IMG/VR virus record: IMGVR_UViG_3300028591_000146
Coordinates: 1 to 64,000 of that record
Origin: a virus
Taxonomy: Duplodnaviria > Caudoviricetes
Length of the DNA: 64,000 nucleotides
Reading direction: 5' to 3' (one strand)
A program made the position numbers and the translations under genes. The notes under the pieces are model-generated. The model searched no databases. It was not told the origin of the DNA and saw nothing but the letters and a program-made list of their open reading frames with translations. Shown here piece after piece: positions 7,936 through 32,709 of the stretch. How positions within the stretch are numbered: the first letter of the stretch is position 1; every line of letters starts with the position of its first letter.

Positions 7936-7956
7936 ATATTTATATGATTTAAATGT
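7936..7956 (+). promoter_or_regulatory. Early-type phage promoter (ATATWTATATNATT class)
   Basis: ATATTTATATGATTTAAATGT, identical at 26588 and near-identical at 29153; upstream of primase. Confidence 0.6.
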
Positions 7957-12947: not shown

Positions 12948-12954
12948 GCTTAAT

Positions 12955-13076
12955 GGGGAATGCATTTAAGTCGATAAATTTAATAAAGGAGGATATACTG
13001 GCAAGATGCATTCCCGACATTATCCGAACGACGACGGATACTATCGTCAGATAGATTGTCAGTAAAATGTACCATG
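12955..13076 (+). ncRNA. Structured cis-acting leader RNA, copy 1 (pseudoknot enclosing SD)
   Basis: P1 GGGAATGCATTT/AGATGCATTCCC; P2 TACTGGCAA/TTGTCAGTA; hairpins TATCCG/CGGATA and CTATC/GATAG; same topology as 31138..31264. Confidence 0.65.
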
Positions 13077-13712
13077 AATAAAGGTAACATTAAAATGGAT
13101 GAACTTAAGAAAGGCTGGGTAACAGCAGCCGAGGTTCATGCACATCTCGAGAGTGTTCTCAAGTGTCCAATCAAGAGTGACTTCAAGGTGATCACAGGAG
13201 CAAACCCTTTTGACGTTTATGTCAGAATGCGTATCGCAATCGAGGATAAGTATGCACTCGACACAACAGGTGCAAACAGCTATGTTGATCAGGTTCTGGC
13301 TGCTAACTGCAGTGAGCTTCCCCTGAGAGATTCTATCTATAAGAAGCTCCTGAAGTTCATGTATCCTCAGGATGTAAATGATCTTCGTCAGTTCATCCTC
13401 AATCAGAATCCACAGAAGCTTCTCAACAAGGGTATCTATGGTGCGAATCTTAAGGAACTTCTCGACAACGCAACACCTCACCACAGTGCAAAGTATTCAG
13501 AGATCGCTGTATATGTAATGCCTGAGGCAATCATCAGAGACATGGTTGTTGATCCCGCAGATGATGACGATGTTGACTTCTTCATCGATCTCGTTACAAA
13601 TGATCCTACAAACGGCGTACGCTGGAGAGCTTGCACAGTTAAGTATGTTGCTAAGACAATCATGACAACACATGATGATGCAACAATCCAGAAGATTTAC
13701 GAATCTCTTTAA
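13074..13712 (+). CDS. Hypothetical protein behind structured leader
   Basis: ORF 13056..13712; in-frame ATG at 13074 in conserved TACCATG context; codon usage resembles abundant structural genes. Confidence 0.75.
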   Translation: MNKGNIKMDELKKGWVTAAEVHAHLESVLKCPIKSDFKVITGANPFDVYVRMRIAIEDKYALDTTGANSYVDQVLAANCSELPLRDSIYKKLLKFMYPQDVNDLRQFILNQNPQKLLNKGIYGANLKELLDNATPHHSAKYSEIAVYVMPEAIIRDMVVDPADDDDVDFFIDLVTNDPTNGVRWRACTVKYVAKTIMTTHDDATIQKIYESL

Positions 13713-14863: not shown

Positions 14864-15460
14864 ATGTTCTCTATAAAGAAATTAATGAATCGAAAAACTG
14901 ATGAAAAACAATGCATCTCATATAAGCATCTGGTATTCGACATTCGTAATTGTTCTGAAACCACATTAGCCTCATTCATTGAGCATACTGATGTTCAATC
15001 GATGAAAGCTGCTGATAAGTTAAGTGAATTGGTTGATCACATTGTTGCATCAATTGATTTATATGCTGAGAATAAATTTGCAGTTCCATCAACAATCCTC
15101 GGATTGAGAAATGGAGCTGTAAAGCTCAGTGATGGAACAAGAATGTTCATAGCTGCGTTGTTTGATAATCTCTCCAATCGTGAGTGTGAAATCAATGAAC
15201 TCATGCAGAGATTCATCAAAGCAACAGATCTTATCATGACAGCTAGAAAGATAATAATGCATTCAATAGAACTTGAATTCAGAATGGTTCAGTATGATGT
15301 CGATATCATCGAGCGTTACTATCAACAACAAAAGCATCCTAATAAAGACATAATATTCAATGTGTCATTTAAACAACCTTCACATATTCTAAAAACTCAA
15401 AAGGAGGACAAGCCTAATGGGTCAGTTAAACGAAACGGAACTCAGAGCAATGGGATATGA
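14864..15460 (+). CDS. Hypothetical protein
   Basis: 198 aa ORF in operon. Confidence 0.7.
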   Translation: MFSIKKLMNRKTDEKQCISYKHLVFDIRNCSETTLASFIEHTDVQSMKAADKLSELVDHIVASIDLYAENKFAVPSTILGLRNGAVKLSDGTRMFIAALFDNLSNRECEINELMQRFIKATDLIMTARKIIMHSIELEFRMVQYDVDIIERYYQQQKHPNKDIIFNVSFKQPSHILKTQKEDKPNGSVKRNGTQSNGI

Positions 15461-17219
15461 ACAGAAGTTCGATTACTCCCAATTCAGTCATGACAATGAC
15501 ATCAATGTTATCCCGAAGAAAGATTTCAAACGTCTCATTCGTGATACATTTAAAACAATCACAACTGTTGTCAAAGAAACATACGGACCGTATGGATCTA
15601 CATATACACTCAATGAGTTGAATCAGACTTCTTCAACAAAGGATGGATACAATTCATTTGAAGCTATTCACTTCTCCCATCAGTATAAGCAGATGGTTAA
15701 ACTCACAATCGGAAAGATATGTTCGCGTGTAAATGAAGTAGTAGGTGATGGCACAACATCATGCTTACTTCTTGCAGACAAGATATTCGATTCGATAGAT
15801 GAGACATTGAAGACCCCTGAGGATGAGAGACTTATCAATGACATTCTTACAGATGTACAGAAGTTCTTCAATGACAGTTTGGCTTTCGCAACTGATTATG
15901 ATTATATCAAACCTTTGAATCATGAATCTCTTGAGAGTGTATTGATGATGGCTTCCAATCATGACAAGAAACTCCGCGATACTCTTATCGATGCTCTTGA
16001 TGTAAAGTATGCTTCAGATGGATCAGTTACATCAATCAACAACATCAATGTTCAGACAAGAATCGATCAGAGTGTTTCAACAAAGTATGAGATACTCAAG
16101 ATGCCTGGTGACTATCGTGTCGAAGTTGGTATGTTCCCGAATGACATTGCTTTGTTACTCGAGAAACAGAACGTTGTGATTATTGCATATGATCATAACT
16201 TCAGTGAAGCTGATTTCACAAGCTTCATCACTACATATAAGGATAAGTATTGTCTGAATAATAAAGCTCATAAGATTCTGAATACGGATGGTACATTATC
16301 TGATGAGAGTGAAGCTAGCAATATTCCCCGTCCGATTATTCTTTTATGTGCAACGAATTTCAATCAGCGTGTAATCGATGATTACATGGTAACCTTCCTC
16401 AAGAGTGAAGCTATCTATAATCGTTCACATAACATCATACCTGTAACAGTCAAAGGTTCATACGCACGTAATGAGATACGTGATCTTGCTGCAGTTGCTG
16501 GAGTTCCATGTCACACTGTATATACACCAACAATCAAGTTTGAAGACTTTGATAAGTTCACTACTGTCACAGTATTCAACAATGATTGTCTCTGCATGTA
16601 TGATGTAAAACCTCCGGCTAATTATATTGAAGCTCTCAATATTGATATGCAGAATGAGGAAACTTCCAGTCGTCGTATACAGATGAAGAAGCGTATTGAT
16701 GCTTTGATGATGACTAAGTCAGACACTACTATCAATCTCACAGTTCCTAACAGTCTTGAACAGAAGATGCTTGAGGATAAGATTGATGACTGTGTTTCTA
16801 TCATCGAATCCGCATTCGAACATGGATGCGTTCCGAACTTATTCAAGTTCGCTCATACAATTCTGAAGATGTATAAGACAACAGACGACCGTACGGCAAC
16901 TGTTATTAATTCTATAATCAAATCTATTGAAGGAATCTTTACTGATGTTTGGATTTCCAAATATGGTGATGATGAGAATCTTATAACAGAACGCACAAAC
17001 AGAATGACATCATTCTATGAATCATATGACGTTTCATATGATATAATAAATGATGACTTCATACCACTCGAGAAACTCTCTACATCAGTACAATATGATG
17101 TCGAGGTTGTATGTGCAACTCTCGAAATCGTTAAATTCTTACTCACATCCAGAGGTCTTATATTTGATTCATGCTTACTGCAGATGCATGGAGATAATGG
17201 ACGTTATGTACCTACATGA
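15417..17219 (+). CDS. GroEL-like phage chaperonin
   Basis: TYGPYG, TKDG, VGDGTTS ATP-binding motif, KIDD; 600 aa. Confidence 0.85.
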   Translation: MGQLNETELRAMGYEQKFDYSQFSHDNDINVIPKKDFKRLIRDTFKTITTVVKETYGPYGSTYTLNELNQTSSTKDGYNSFEAIHFSHQYKQMVKLTIGKICSRVNEVVGDGTTSCLLLADKIFDSIDETLKTPEDERLINDILTDVQKFFNDSLAFATDYDYIKPLNHESLESVLMMASNHDKKLRDTLIDALDVKYASDGSVTSINNINVQTRIDQSVSTKYEILKMPGDYRVEVGMFPNDIALLLEKQNVVIIAYDHNFSEADFTSFITTYKDKYCLNNKAHKILNTDGTLSDESEASNIPRPIILLCATNFNQRVIDDYMVTFLKSEAIYNRSHNIIPVTVKGSYARNEIRDLAAVAGVPCHTVYTPTIKFEDFDKFTTVTVFNNDCLCMYDVKPPANYIEALNIDMQNEETSSRRIQMKKRIDALMMTKSDTTINLTVPNSLEQKMLEDKIDDCVSIIESAFEHGCVPNLFKFAHTILKMYKTTDDRTATVINSIIKSIEGIFTDVWISKYGDDENLITERTNRMTSFYESYDVSYDIINDDFIPLEKLSTSVQYDVEVVCATLEIVKFLLTSRGLIFDSCLLQMHGDNGRYVPT

Positions 17220-26627: not shown

Positions 26628-29138
26628 ATGAAAATCAAAAGTATTAGATTAATTAATTTCAGTAGTATTTATGCTTGTAGGAATCTTAAAGAAGTCTACT
26701 ATGAATTTGATAATACTGATAAGACGATCAATCAGATCTGTGGACCTAATAGAAGTGGTAAGACTGTTCTTATTCAACAACTGCATCCATTCTCGTCAAT
26801 AAATCTCAGTGGCGATGAACGTTCTGATTTACAATTGATAATTCCTGGTGAGACTGGTGTCAAAGAAATAACATATGAAGTTGGTGGTAAAGAATATCAT
26901 ATCAATCATACATATAAACCCAGTGGCAAATCTCATTCAGTTATATCATCCATTGTATGTGATGGTAAAGAACTCAATAGCAGTGGTGGAGTTAATACGT
27001 TCAATTCAGTAATTGAGAAAGTGTTTGGATTGAATAGATATGCATTCCAGTTTACTATTAATGGAACTCAATTGAATTCTCTCAGTACAATGAATGCTAC
27101 TCAACGAAAGACATTACTTAATAAAGCTCTCGGTGTTGATATTTATGATAAGATTCATAAACTGTCAACTGCAGACCATCGATATATCAGCAAGACCATT
27201 TCATCATTGAATAATACTAAAGAATTTATATTAAAGAAGTATGGTTCATATGAGAATCTTCAGATGATGTTAAGTGAGAAACAGAAAGAATACACAGCAT
27301 TGATTAACTCGATGAGTAGTGTTAAATCCAATATGGATAGATTATTTGGAATGATCACATCCATAAAGAATCAAGATCCATACAATGAATTACAGCGACT
27401 CAATATGATACTCGAAGATGTCAATGAAGTTAGTAAACGCATCGGTTCATATGATGATTCTACATATACCAGATTATCTGAAGAGAGTATAGAGTTGAAT
27501 AAAAAGCTTGAACAGTTGAAGACTAAGTATCATGATCTGCTTGTTGAGATGGATAAGTTTGATGAAAAGAAAGATGATATTGTAGCATCAATGGCTAAAG
27601 CTAAAAGGATGAAAGATGATTACGATGATATGAAACGAGTGAAAGAAAGACTCGAAGAACAGATAAAATCTATCAAGGTTAATAAGATCATATCATTAGC
27701 TCCAGACTTCTATAGAGCAGCTTTGAATCTCACTCAGACAATCAATTCCATGGCAAGTGAAATAGTGACAACTCTTAATGATGATCTATTGGATATGGTT
27801 GTCAGGATGGTTCTTGATAATGTTGACATTCCTGCATTCCTGATACGAGAAGGAGCTGTATTGAATGACGGTGAAAAAGAAAGAAATGCAATGAATCGTC
27901 TCAATGTGATATTGTCATCAGTACCTGGTGAGTATCCAAAATGTAATCATGAGAATTGTATATACAAGAACACATATGACAAATTCCAAGTATACTTCAA
28001 ATCATATCAATCTGCGACCAAAAGTAAATTGACTATTGATGATTTGGAGAATATTGATCATTGTTGGAAGAATATAACATCAATCAAAAGACTCATCAAT
28101 ACTGAGTATCCGGATGAATTGAAGAATACATTTAATATTGAAACCATTATGCTTAATATCAAATCAAGTAAATGGGGAGTAGACTTTGATTATGTGAAAT
28201 CATTATATGAAGCTGCTGTTGACAATGAGCAACGTCGTAAGTTAATTGAACAACTTCAGAATGTTGAGAATAATATAAAGATGATTGAATCTGTTATGAT
28301 AGATGATACAGACCCAACTCAAGCTATCAATGATATCAACAAACATCTTGATGAATTAAGTGATAAACGTGAAATGATGTTGAGAGAAAAGGTTAAACTT
28401 GAAGAAGCTATATTGGCTAATGATAAGAATCGAGCATTGATATCACATCTGAATGGAGTAAATGTTGGAGAGGTTCATGCTAAGATAGATAAGCTTACTG
28501 AGACTATTAAAACATTAGATCAACTTCAGCAAACTCATGATGAACATTATAGAACATATCATGATTATCTATCTCAACAATCAGAATTATCAATTCAACT
28601 TGATTCATTAAAGAAAGATGATTCACACTGTAAGATGACAATGAATGAACTGATGACCAATAAAGAACAGGATACTCAATGTCGTTTGATAGCAGATGCT
28701 ACATCATCAACAAAAGGTCTTCCAGTTGTAATGATTCACAATACATTGGATGAATCTGTAAAGATTGCAAATCATCTATTGGATGTTATTTATGATGGAT
28801 CTGTTAAACTTAATGATCCAGAAGTATCTGAGTCTACATTAAACATTCCATTCACACATGATCTTATTCAATCCAATGATATCAGATATGGATCTCAATC
28901 AGAAGCTACTATATTTGCATTGGTATTGTCATTAGCATTGTCTACCCAATTGACTAACTACAATATCATTCTGATAGATGAGATCGATGCATATCTTGAT
29001 CATGAGTTCAAAGATAAGTTCATATCAATGCTTGATGAAGTATCTAAACTTCTTCATATAGATCAACTATTCGTTATATCACATAACATCAATACCGATC
29101 AATATTCGAATATCATAAATAAGATATCATTAATCTAA
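26628..29138 (+). CDS. SbcC/Rad50-like (T4 gp46-like) ABC ATPase
   Basis: Walker A GPNRSGKT, long coiled coil with central CNHENC, signature-like GSQSE, Walker B IILIDEID, H-loop ISH. Confidence 0.85.
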   Translation: MKIKSIRLINFSSIYACRNLKEVYYEFDNTDKTINQICGPNRSGKTVLIQQLHPFSSINLSGDERSDLQLIIPGETGVKEITYEVGGKEYHINHTYKPSGKSHSVISSIVCDGKELNSSGGVNTFNSVIEKVFGLNRYAFQFTINGTQLNSLSTMNATQRKTLLNKALGVDIYDKIHKLSTADHRYISKTISSLNNTKEFILKKYGSYENLQMMLSEKQKEYTALINSMSSVKSNMDRLFGMITSIKNQDPYNELQRLNMILEDVNEVSKRIGSYDDSTYTRLSEESIELNKKLEQLKTKYHDLLVEMDKFDEKKDDIVASMAKAKRMKDDYDDMKRVKERLEEQIKSIKVNKIISLAPDFYRAALNLTQTINSMASEIVTTLNDDLLDMVVRMVLDNVDIPAFLIREGAVLNDGEKERNAMNRLNVILSSVPGEYPKCNHENCIYKNTYDKFQVYFKSYQSATKSKLTIDDLENIDHCWKNITSIKRLINTEYPDELKNTFNIETIMLNIKSSKWGVDFDYVKSLYEAAVDNEQRRKLIEQLQNVENNIKMIESVMIDDTDPTQAINDINKHLDELSDKREMMLREKVKLEEAILANDKNRALISHLNGVNVGEVHAKIDKLTETIKTLDQLQQTHDEHYRTYHDYLSQQSELSIQLDSLKKDDSHCKMTMNELMTNKEQDTQCRLIADATSSTKGLPVVMIHNTLDESVKIANHLLDVIYDGSVKLNDPEVSESTLNIPFTHDLIQSNDIRYGSQSEATIFALVLSLALSTQLTNYNIILIDEIDAYLDHEFKDKFISMLDEVSKLLHIDQLFVISHNINTDQYSNIINKISLI

Positions 29139-29986: not shown

Positions 29987-31042
29987 ATGAATAAAGTAAT
30001 TATAGGCTTAGGCAATACAGGTAGCGTTATCGTTCGTGAGGTTGCAAAGAAGAATCTCAATGATGTTATACTGTTCGCAATCGACTCACAGACAAGACAT
30101 ATATCACTTGATGATGTTGCTTCAATCAAGTATATTCCGATCATCGCTGATGACAATGATGGTTCCGGTAGAGACCGTGAGCGTGGTCGTGAAATGTTCC
30201 TCTGGAATAGCAATAACGGCAAGCTTGATGAGATGTATGAAATCTGTAAAGAGACTGATACAATCTTCGTTGTTACATCAGCTGCAGGTGGTACAGGTTC
30301 TGGTAGCTGTCCAGCACTTTGCAAACAGCTCAAAACACGTAATGAATATTGCAACATCATCCCAATAATCATATGCCCGAACATGGATGATCCGGATGCA
30401 TATCACCTCAACACAACAGACCTCATGGTTGAGCTCGGTGATGTTGGTATCAGAACATACATGATCTTCCGTAATCCTAATTCATCAGACTACAGAAAGG
30501 TCAATGCTGAAATCGTTGAAGCTATTGATATTTTGCTTGGTAATAAGTATGAGACAACAGACAACGATTCAATCGATGCATCAGATCTGAATAACATCCT
30601 CATGGTTGATGGAAGGCTCTTCGCAATATCTGTATCAGGAGATTCTGTTGATGAAGTTAGTAGAAAGCTTGCAAAGGAAATAGTATCATCATATCAGCCG
30701 ACATGGGATCCTTCTGATAGAGGTTACGGAGTTGCAGCATTCTCAATGAAATCCATCAATGCTGGAGAAGATTCAAAGATTGTATTTGATGATATCCTTC
30801 CTAAGATTGAGCATTGTTCAGACAGATACAAGAATATCGTTATAGATGATAATAATGGTAAGATCGATGTATCTCTCATAGTTGCAGGACTTCAGCCAGT
30901 AGACTTCAAGACCATAGAAGTTAACTATACAGAGACAGCATCAATCAGTGAGAACCTCAAGAAAGCAGAGCGTCCAGCATTCATGACAAAACGCAAGAGA
31001 CGTTCATTTGCAGAATTCGAAAAAGAAATGAGTAAGAAATAA
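29987..31042 (+). CDS. Tubulin/FtsZ-family GTPase (PhuZ/TubZ-like)
   Basis: IIGLGNTG, GSGRDRERG, tubulin signature AGGTGSG, T7-loop IDASDL, basic C-terminal tail. Confidence 0.9.
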   Translation: MNKVIIGLGNTGSVIVREVAKKNLNDVILFAIDSQTRHISLDDVASIKYIPIIADDNDGSGRDRERGREMFLWNSNNGKLDEMYEICKETDTIFVVTSAAGGTGSGSCPALCKQLKTRNEYCNIIPIIICPNMDDPDAYHLNTTDLMVELGDVGIRTYMIFRNPNSSDYRKVNAEIVEAIDILLGNKYETTDNDSIDASDLNNILMVDGRLFAISVSGDSVDEVSRKLAKEIVSSYQPTWDPSDRGYGVAAFSMKSINAGEDSKIVFDDILPKIEHCSDRYKNIVIDDNNGKIDVSLIVAGLQPVDFKTIEVNYTETASISENLKKAERPAFMTKRKRRSFAEFEKEMSKK

Positions 31043-31054
31043 TGTATAAAATCC

Positions 31055-31086
31055 GTCCGGATTGTAGCCCTACCTATAATCCGGAC
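31055..31086. terminator. Long stem-loop after tubulin gene
   Basis: GTCCGGATTGTAG/CTATAATCCGGAC. Confidence 0.55.
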
Positions 31087-31137
31087 TTGACATATACATA
31101 TAATTATTCTGGTAACACGGTACAGCTGTGTATCCAA

Positions 31138-31264
31138 AATAGGATCAATTGATTGTCGAATAAATTAATAAAGGAGGATATACTGACGGATTGGTTCTAT
31201 TAAATCTCATGTCGACAGTGAGATAGCTTGGTTCCTCCCAAGTAGTCAGTAGAAATTTACCATG
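31138..31264 (+). ncRNA. Structured cis-acting leader RNA, copy 2
   Basis: P1 AATAGGATCAATT/GATTGGTTCTATT; P2 TACTGAC/GTCAGTA; hairpins ATCTCA/TGAGAT and CTTGG/CCAAG; conserved GTCGA..TAAATT..AATAAAGGAGGATATACTG and AAAT.TACCATG. Confidence 0.65.
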
Positions 31265-32149
31265 GTAAGACTTATGGACACGGATGAAGTGTGTCTGGAT
31301 TCTGTAGAGTCATATCTCAGAAGAACAGGTGCACCAATTCCAAGAAACCCGGAAGAAGAACTTGTCATCAAAAAGCATGCACGTGACATGTTATATTCCG
31401 ACATCGCCAACAGACTCCCAAGAATTTCAGCATATCTGCTTGAAGTCGGAGACTCTGAAGAAAAGGCTAAAGCACTGAGATTCGCAATCGAACATCATTG
31501 TATGGATGCAGCATTTGTGAATGTTGTAATGCAAAGACTTGCAACAAACGGATTCCTTGAAGATGCACATCTTGTTGGAGCACTGTTTGTGACAGTAATC
31601 AATAAGTATTTTGAGGATCACAAACCTACATCCAAGATGAAGGCTGAAGAGATTGAGGATCTTCAGAAGAAGAATGTTCGTGAGACTCAGCATCTCAAGA
31701 ATGCAATCTCTGTACTTCTCAAGGATATCATTGTTAATGTAAGAGAGCTCTGTCCAGGACTCGACGAAGACGTTGAAGTTCCAGCAATCGCAGGAGCAAT
31801 CGCTGTAAACAATGAGACAACTCTTACAGAACTCATGAACTTTGAGAAACAGCTCACTGCTGATATCTTCAAGGTATATACAGATCCTGAGAAGATCATC
31901 AGAGCAGCACTTCTGATGAAGAAGAACAACTATCTGAAGCTCACAGCTAATCAGCAGAAGTTCGTTCAGTCTCTCAAGGATTTCGTATTCAGCAAGCTCG
32001 ATAGTCTCGATATGACACAGTGCTACAGATTCCTCTTATCTGTATATAATGATATGAAGCCTAAGACTGCAGAATATCTTATATGCATTACAGATGTATC
32101 TAAGGCACAGTATCCTAATCTTCACGAAGTCGTAAATCAGTTCAAATAA
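31262..32149 (+). CDS. Hypothetical alpha-helical protein behind structured leader
   Basis: 295 aa; no SD at normal spacing; ATG in TACCATG context. Confidence 0.8.
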   Translation: MVRLMDTDEVCLDSVESYLRRTGAPIPRNPEEELVIKKHARDMLYSDIANRLPRISAYLLEVGDSEEKAKALRFAIEHHCMDAAFVNVVMQRLATNGFLEDAHLVGALFVTVINKYFEDHKPTSKMKAEEIEDLQKKNVRETQHLKNAISVLLKDIIVNVRELCPGLDEDVEVPAIAGAIAVNNETTLTELMNFEKQLTADIFKVYTDPEKIIRAALLMKKNNYLKLTANQQKFVQSLKDFVFSKLDSLDMTQCYRFLLSVYNDMKPKTAEYLICITDVSKAQYPNLHEVVNQFK

Positions 32150-32163
32150 GGAGGACGAAAATA

Positions 32164-32709
32164 ATGGATAACAACGCACAGTTCAGAATCTCGCCTCAGG
32201 TAGTTGAAGCACTGAGACCGATTATCTCTGATATGACAAGAGTCATGGCATTCCAGCAGGCACACGCTGGTGACACAAACTATAAGGTTCCCGACTGGGT
32301 ATCAGCTGCAAAGAGATGCTGCTGTCATGTAGTATTCGATGGACGTCAGCAGGCTAAGCTTGCAATCGCAAAGCGTTCTGATGGAAAACTCTGGTGCACA
32401 GCATGTGGAAGAGAGATCTCAACTGATTTCGGAAAGGATTCAACTGAGAAACTTCTTGCTGCAATCGCAGAAGTAAACAAGGTTCTTCTCTTCGGAGTTA
32501 TTAATGGTCTTGATCCTAAGGCTGCTCAGTCTATCGTATCTGTAAAGGCTGTAATGCCTGATATCGTTCAGATGAATACAGAACTCAACCAGAAGCTTGA
32601 TAACAACCAGAAGGCCGCTAAGGTTACAGGTGCTATCGGCGATGAGTACAGAGGCGAATTCGCAGCAATGTACAATACAGGTGATGCATTCACAACAATG
32701 CACGGTTGA
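32164..32709 (+). CDS. Hypothetical protein with probable Zn-binding site
   Basis: 181 aa, SD AAGGAGG; CCCH...CTAC. Confidence 0.75.
   Translation: MDNNAQFRISPQVVEALRPIISDMTRVMAFQQAHAGDTNYKVPDWVSAAKRCCCHVVFDGRQQAKLAIAKRSDGKLWCTACGREISTDFGKDSTEKLLAAIAEVNKVLLFGVINGLDPKAAQSIVSVKAVMPDIVQMNTELNQKLDNNQKAAKVTGAIGDEYRGEFAAMYNTGDAFTTMHG

Follow-up and report, generated by a model that had tools for sequence, protein, structure and literature searches.

A conserved folded leader, possibly a split ribosome-binding site, precedes two unrelated genes of an uncultured ruminant-gut jumbo phage

The locus, its genes, and their relatives

The window, by which the whole analysed stretch of 64,000 nucleotides is meant, is taken from the very start of a 94-kb IMG/VR virus record with an estimated completeness of 35% and a G+C content of 37%. 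Near-identical DNA has turned up across many studies in the gut metagenomes of sheep, goats, and cattle, and the source is therefore an uncultured ruminant-gut jumbo phage. In most genes of this phage, AAGGAGG precedes the start codon by 7-8 nt, which is the genome norm, and several further genes are without a clear Shine-Dalgarno (SD) sequence. A tubulin/PhuZ-like gene (29987-31042) lies just upstream of a leader, copy 2 (31135-31264, + strand), which heads a two-gene unit on the same strand, right behind the tubulin gene, as the initial annotation had proposed. The first gene of the unit (31262-32149, here gene 31262) encodes an all-helical protein of 295 residues (P0001), and the second (32164-32709) encodes 181 residues and has its own SD, AAGGAGG, 8 nt before the ATG. 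Copy 1 of the leader (12951-13076, + strand) is placed before an unrelated gene, 13074-13712. Other genes near the leaders encode a GroEL-like chaperonin (15417-17219; PHROG 5725, E 9e-36) and an SbcC-like protein (26628-29138; PHROG 77, E 5e-37).

The 295-residue protein has no match in Pfam or PHROG; its AlphaFold model is confident (pLDDT 90), and the Foldseek matches of this model are uncharacterised phage proteins only. Searches of Pfam and PHROG also returned no family match for the 181-residue protein, the model of P0002 is of low confidence (pLDDT 59.5), and the ESM Atlas gave no usable lead on the function of the leader-headed proteins. The two proteins that carry a leader had been described as unrelated in appearance, in line with an hhalign probability of 0.3%. 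In the ESM Atlas, the copy-1 protein begins at residue 8 (ATG at 13095), some 10 nt downstream of a weak AAAGG, which means that the start of this gene (13074-13097) is placed differently by different gene callers. Residues 1-7 (MNKG..K) are conserved in four of four homologues. Gene finders that require a nearby SD may misplace starts of this kind, and copy 1 seems to be a case.

Protein searches recovered 15 homologues of the 295-residue protein, and orthologous leader DNA was obtained from three distinct loci besides copy 2 of the window, namely L010, L003, and L008, where the orthologous proteins are 77%, 62%, and 57% identical, respectively. L003 is the same contig as L004, L007, and L011, and the leader of L008 is identical to those of L009 and L019. 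At all three loci the gene is located directly downstream of the tubulin gene and is headed by the same leader. When viral contigs were scanned for single proteins, using P0001, the tubulin protein, or an alignment of P0002, no match was obtained, and a P0002 homologue is absent from the records behind L003 and behind two more distant contigs, L005 and L006. The 11-kb contig of L019 (CAYYEN010000053.1, 6520-6780), whose leader and gene start are identical to those of L008, is binned in a MAG labelled uncultured Spirochaetaceae; the contig may be phage DNA that was binned wrongly, or else it hints weakly at the host.

Elements upstream of copy 2

The stop codon of the tubulin gene is followed by a hairpin (31056-31085, + strand) with an 8-bp stem and a 14-nt loop. 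RNAalifold, applied to the four orthologues, gives here a consensus helix of 12 pairs, several of which are changed on both sides, and the loop carries a conserved CCCUAC. The intrinsic terminators that were called do not include this hairpin, which has no U tract; its role may be in termination or in processing. It is directly followed by a 22-nt block, CTTGACATATACATATAATTAT (31086-31107, + strand), which is 100% identical in the four orthologues and unique in the 94-kb record. Within this block no sigma-70 match was found by spacing, and its core, ATACATA(T)AATT, also precedes the distant orthologues that have a plain SD. The block is probably the promoter of the leader-gene unit and is treated as a candidate. 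Just before the first leader helix, P1, lies another hairpin of the RNAalifold consensus of the four orthologues, P0 (31107-31138, + strand), with a GGACAG-like loop; it is weak in the window, where 6 of 9 pairs form, the orthologous versions being stronger.

Contigs from two RNA libraries span the leader, starting before or within it, and run into the gene with no joint, so nothing is spliced out, DNA carry-over being possible in these libraries. The contigs of four runs show no variants and no joints over the leader.

Architecture of the leader

The order of the elements is the same in all five sequences that were compared, which are the four copy-2 orthologues and copy 1. It runs P1a, 2-6 nt, a GUCGA box, an A-rich linker, the SD AAAGGAGG, 3-4 nt, P2a, 1 nt, P1b, P3, P4, P2b, 9-10 nt, and AUG. 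In the window, the 5' strand of P1 (31138-31150) pairs with its 3' strand (31189-31201) over 13 bp, including three G-U pairs (12-13 bp across the sequences), and encloses the GUCGA box, the SD (31170-31177), and P2a. The box (31154-31159), TGTCGA in the DNA, is complementary to TCGACA (31212-31217) in the loop of P3, a hairpin of 6 bp with the 9-nt loop UGUCGACAG (31204-31224). P4 (31226-31243) has 6 bp and the loop UUCCUC. P2 comprises 7 bp between UACUGAC (31181-31187), which starts 3 nt after the SD core and ends 1 nt before P1b, and GUCAGUA (31245-31251). The leader ends with an A/U-rich spacer of 10 nt and the ATG (31252-31264), a segment that is 90% identical to copy 1. All these elements are on the + strand. 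The pairings and motifs listed in the initial annotation, that is P1, P2, TGTCGA/TCGACA, TTCCTCC, TAAATT/AATTTA, and the CTG, were all located where it had placed them.

Despite differing letters, P1 forms 12 of 12 pairs in each of the five sequences, and P3 and P4 behave alike. Both sides are changed in nine of the 12 P1 pairs (98% of cells paired), in three of the four modelled pairs of P3, and in five of the six pairs of P4, which is found as a hairpin at the same place in every sequence, each time with a different stem. Overall, 17 of 34 pairs carry changes on both sides, and none of 500 shuffles reaches the observed values; 94.5% of cells are paired over the five sequences, compared with 24-43% when the partners are slid by 1-3 columns. 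The pair counts refer to five sequences (four copy-2 orthologues and one paralogue) in a model-fitted alignment, A7, and the helices of the five were checked by hand independently of that alignment. Within this set of sequences, the counts show P1, P3, and P4 to be kept by compensatory substitutions. Read from the opposite strand, the thirteen G-U pairs would become A-C mismatches, and the structure is therefore that of a + strand RNA.

The sequence of P2 is conserved; a single A-to-G change, in copy 1, keeps a G-U pair, and no pair is changed on both sides. The GUCGA box is invariant in all five sequences and could form 4-6 bp with the P3 loop, with no covariation; this loop is conserved as UCGAC across the orthologues, and CGAC is retained in copy 1. 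As P2 and the GUCGA/UCGAC contact are essentially invariant, covariation speaks neither for nor against either of them. The box is a candidate loop-loop partner of P3.

In nested minimum-energy folds, P1, P3, and P4 are present in four of the five sequences and P2 in one. The distances from the SD to P2a, from P2a to P1b (1 nt), and from P2b to the AUG are constant in all five, as is the strand order of an H-type pseudoknot, P1a, P2a, P1b, P2b, with the 1-nt linker between P2a and P1b. While P1 is proven by covariation of the compared sequences, P2 consists of conserved complementarity plus one G-U variant, and the pseudoknot is a plausible candidate.

Between orthologues, third codon positions of gene 31262 are 39-56% identical, which places synonymous sites near saturation. 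The block from the SD to P2a is 95-100% identical among them and the 3' block up to the ATG 80-95%; the stems are 52-64% identical, with pairing preserved.

One leader family in two copies

Two unrelated genes are each headed by the same folded RNA cassette of about 126-130 nt, counted from P1a to the AUG. The window contains exactly two occurrences of a 20-mer that spans the SD (12981 and 31166; none expected), and the 94-kb record has no more than two. A covariance model, R1, was built from copy 2 of the window with L010, L003, and L008, and copy 1 was left out. It nevertheless recovers copy 1 (12951-13076) end to end, over all 133 model positions, with 61.9 bits and an E of about 3e-9. Because a model made without copy 1 matches it over the full length, the copies are truly homologous, beyond a shared SD, and the reading of 31138-31264 as the second copy of a structured leader is upheld by this match. 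A scan with R1 of the 94-kb record and three related records found no leader in addition to the known ones, which amount to two in the 94-kb record and one in a 50-kb relative.

Between copy 1 and copy 2 the stems are 32-40% identical, which is the random level, and the unpaired blocks 76-90%. The duplication is therefore old, and it is purifying selection, not recency, that has kept the blocks alike. Copy 1 is internal to an operon, beginning 4-8 nt after the stop codon of the upstream ORF, and it is without the post-tubulin hairpin, the 22-nt block, and P0 that precede copy 2; hence the conserved unit is the cassette of about 126-130 nt from P1a to the AUG.

No match to Rfam 15 was obtained at gathering score across the whole window, and at E up to 10 on 31040-31290 the sole match was a chance microRNA on the other strand. 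Comparison with GenBank phages by blastn gave short chance matches only and no relative, and pattern scans of IMG/VR and GTDB genomes returned either members of the same clade (L003, L019) or chance matches in coding regions (L020, L022, L023). By pattern scans and blastn, the family is found in one phage clade alone. As judged from these comparisons, the leader belongs to a small family of structured cassettes for translation initiation that is listed in no catalogue and occurs in a clade of ruminant-gut jumbo phages. The initial annotation had proposed that the genes behind the two copies are co-regulated, which may reasonably be inferred from the shared, selectively conserved blocks.

Initiation signals of gene 31262

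In bacterial initiation, the SD is usually positioned within about 5-13 nt of the start codon. The sole strong SD available to gene 31262 is AAAGGAGG, invariant in the five sequences, and from the end of its GGAGG to the ATG there are 81-88 nt in these sequences as opposed to the 7-8 nt of the genome norm. Within 25 nt of ATG 31262, no SD-like duplex better than -0.9 kcal/mol was found, and near the SD no ATG, GTG, or TTG is conserved in the five sequences. ATG 31262 is the start methionine in all homologues of the 295-residue protein, and an in-frame TAG is located upstream of it at 31250. That the SD is separated from its ATG by a conserved fold, as had been suggested, is confirmed by this distance together with the covariation of P1, P3, and P4. 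With P2 formed, which is a candidate pairing, the unpaired nucleotides between SD and AUG would be 3-4 plus 9-10, about 12-14 in total.

Other proposals on this region fared less well. A CTG lies 79 nt (copy 2) and 76 nt (copy 1) upstream of the ATG, and it had been thought to open a short uORF in a frame shared by both copies; the distance from CTG to ATG modulo 3 is 1, 0, 2, 0, and 1 in the five sequences, by which comparison the common frame of the two window copies is a coincidence. Pairing of TAAATT (31161) with AATTTA (31254) amounts to -1.6 kcal/mol in the window and to at least 0 in the orthologues, and it is not conserved. The loop resembling an anti-SD, TTCCTCC (31232-31238) in P4, does not extend to the family, as CUCC belongs to the P4 loop in three sequences (window, L003, L008) and to the P3 stem in L010, and copy 1 has none. 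CUCC could mask the SD, which may matter for copy 2 and is not a feature of the family. In L010 (1441-1461), the P3 stem now reads ACUCCA/UGGAGU while CUCC is gone from the P4 loop, which looks like a relocation of the motif and not a loss, although it is one instance and may be coincidental.

Age of the leader

In the viral contigs L005 and L006, orthologues with 35-36% identity are again found directly after a tubulin-like gene, and they have an ordinary AAGGAGG 7-8 nt upstream of the ATG and no fold. It had been held against the leader in advance that homologous genes of related phages might show ordinary SD-ATG spacing and no structure. This is so in the distant L005 and L006 but not in the four closer orthologues, all of which have kept the fold. 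The leader is accordingly a clade-specific acquisition, and the plain SD of the distant orthologues dates it rather than refuting it. As these orthologues have a strong proximal SD and still stand beside the tubulin gene, the gene is normally SD-driven. The split site of T4 gene 25 is likewise limited to close T-even phages (PMC3014915). In L005 (1393-1489) and L006 (1393-1489), an intergenic hairpin encloses the core ATACATAATT.

A possible split ribosome-binding site

The reading that we prefer, to which about an even chance is given on the sequence evidence, is that the leader is a structure-dependent split ribosome-binding site of the kind known from T4 genes 38 and 25, possibly a regulated one. 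P2 (UACUGAC with GUCAGUA) would close an insert of about 60 nt and stack on P1 to form the rod of an H-type pseudoknot. The SD strand and the AUG strand would both emerge at the outer end of P2, separated by about 12-14 unpaired nucleotides, and the rest of the fold (P1, P3, and P4) would be directed away from this end. The ribosome would then meet a T4-like arrangement of SD, stem, and AUG in which the stem carries a large cap, and a 30S subunit anchored on the SD would reach the AUG only when the RNA is folded. Since translation would depend on the fold, the cassette would be a natural control point common to the two genes.

The split-site reading is favoured because there is no SD-like sequence in the 25 nt next to the ATG and no usable start near the SD. 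Against it stand the near-invariance of P2 and its presence in one nested fold of five, and also the spacing, as 12-14 nt plus a helix end exceed both the genome norm of 7-8 nt and the spacing of T4 gene 25. To our knowledge there is also no precedent for a multi-helix insert of 75 nt on the 30S platform. The other genes of this phage that are without a clear SD weigh against it too, as initiation at 31262 could be independent of an SD.

The split initiation regions of T4 genes 38 and 25 were reportedly described by Nivinskas et al. in 1999 and by Malys and Nivinskas in 2009. We know of no tested exceptions to the rule on SD spacing other than these two small hairpins. In them, a fold shortens the distance between SD and AUG from 22 to 5 nt (gene 38) and from 27 to 11 nt (gene 25) (PMC3014915). 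The leader resembles these regions in that it is a phage element whose SD and AUG are too far apart in the primary sequence, in that the intervening structure is conserved in close relatives and absent from distant ones, and in that this structure is proposed to bring both signals to a workable distance; copy 1, moreover, is intercistronic like gene 25. It differs from them in scale, as T4 has one small hairpin that turns 22-27 nt into 5-11 nt, whereas here 81-88 nt would be reduced to about 12-14 unpaired nucleotides by a domain of about 60 nt with three covarying helices, a candidate pseudoknot, and a candidate loop contact. The cassette is also modular, with two paralogues before unrelated genes, and has no sequence relationship to the T4 regions, its function being inferred from sequence alone. 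By analogy, the leader would work most like the split regions of T4 genes 38 and 25, and it is a sequence relative of none of the compared systems.

A split ribosome-binding site is also known from E. coli thrS, reportedly through the work of Sacerdot et al. In the model proposed for thrS, two single-stranded parts of the leader would contact the 30S subunit, with the folded domain between them left intact (PMC3936740). The likeness lies in this accommodation of a folded domain between two single-stranded parts by the 30S subunit, and in thrS the domain is also a regulatory operator. In contrast to the leader, thrS has its SD beside the AUG, and its distal part is an upstream region without structure; in addition, the thrS fold mimics the anticodon arm of a tRNA and binds ThrRS, while for the leader no mimicry or partner is known.

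If the split-site reading is true, a pseudoknotted site of more than 80 nt stretches what the 30S platform is thought to accommodate, the cassette is a portable, fold-dependent translation module, and uncultured jumbo phages hold structured regulatory RNAs that are missing from the catalogues.

Alternative explanations

A regulated translational operator or switch, in which exposure of the SD would be set by a trans-acting factor (a phage or host RNA-binding protein, a small molecule, or temperature), overlaps with the split-site reading and is considered rather unlikely as an explanation of its own. Its emphasis is on control, by which both genes would be timed together. It would account for the unpaired blocks (GUCGA, the SD with AUAUACUGAC, the P3 loop, and GUCAGUA), which are conserved far beyond what the shortening of a spacer needs and have survived in both paralogues, an old pair in which the stems diverged completely. 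Since a plain SD suffices for relatives, so elaborate a fold must have some further use, and in each of the four copy-2 orthologues CUCC can pair with the SD (-6.8 to -10.7 kcal/mol). This motif shifts its place and is missing from copy 1, however, and the downstream proteins have no RNA-binding signature, nor was any candidate factor found. The confinement of the family to one narrow phage clade is unlike the known riboswitch classes, and no Rfam family matches. Among known operators, those of the T4 gene 32 leader and of E. coli rpsO/S15 (PMC3985624) similarly use a leader pseudoknot near the initiation region to govern how the 30S subunit gains access to this region or uses it. In both of these, the SD is adjacent to the AUG and the encoded protein regulates its own synthesis; here, the pseudoknot would lie between SD and AUG and be common to two unrelated genes.

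It is also conceivable, though doubtful and somewhat speculative, that the fold is an autonomous domain for ribosome docking and sensing, a bacterial counterpart of an internal entry element that would allow a 30S subunit held by an SD to initiate more than 80 nt away, would be switched by a phage or host factor or a small molecule, and would time a small regulon of unrelated genes. Were this so, it would be a new class of translational control RNA and not an enlarged hairpin of the T4 type.

The SD could instead belong to a stabiliser of the mRNA, to which the 30S subunit binds while the helices block 5'-to-3' decay, the AUG being used without an SD; this is regarded as quite unlikely. The model is the STAB-SD of B. 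thuringiensis cry3A, which Agaisse and Lereclus are said to have described in 1996. In that gene, an SD-like sequence lies far upstream in the 5' leader (PMC4113751), and the phage leader resembles it in its strong SD some 80 nt upstream, the lack of a start codon beside it, and signals of the Firmicutes or Gram-positive type (PMC4113751). The helices P0 and P1, both stable, are close to where the 5' end is presumed to be, and some genes of the phage are without an SD. Nonetheless, cry3A has a separate, functional SD at its start codon, and gene 31262 has none (-0.9 kcal/mol at best), while its distant orthologues depend on a strong proximal one. The STAB-SD needs no surrounding fold and is found near the 5' end of a processed mRNA, unlike copy 1, which is internal to its operon, 4-8 nt after the upstream stop codon. 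The invariant arms of P2 and the fixed distances to SD and AUG would be left unexplained.

That inverted 7-mers (TACTGAC ... GTCAGTA) flank the insert, which is absent from the distant orthologues and present before two unrelated genes, would fit a selfish or neutral mobile insertion with terminal inverted repeats, tolerated between SD and ATG. This is judged very unlikely, as the conserved unit exceeds the inverted repeat, with P1a lying upstream of the SD, and as the 94 kb contain no more than two copies and the 50-kb relative a single one; covarying stems and strong purifying selection on the unpaired blocks are not expected for junk.

There is hardly any case for the conserved 5' block being a promoter (a TCGAT-like -35, 17-18 nt, and a TATACT -10) whose transcript starts past the SD. 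A consensus scan does call TCGATA-17-TATACT in copy 1 (9 of 12 matches), and in the orthologues GUCGA and TATACT remain 17-18 nt apart; yet such promoter-like matches are not above shuffled expectation, and copy 2 is not called. P1 covaries between strands on either side of the supposed promoter, which puts both strands in one RNA, and an invariant AAAGGAGG is not needed in a spacer. The RNA-library contig that runs through the whole region also argues against it, if weakly, DNA carry-over being possible. Translation of the CTG uORF, with initiation at the main ATG by coupling or hopping, is just as improbable: a CTG does stand 5 nt after the SD in all five sequences, but its place in P2a explains this conservation, the reading frames have 3, 3, 6, 6, and 18 codons and lie in frames 1, 0, 2, 0, and 1 relative to the ATG, and CTG is a very poor bacterial start codon.

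A recurrent motif elsewhere in the genome

Apart from the leaders, the motif ATATTTATATGATTTAAATG recurs, with up to two changes, shortly upstream of gene starts at 7941, 26593, 29158, and 63845 of the window and at 73620 of the record. These recurrences probably represent a class of phage promoters.
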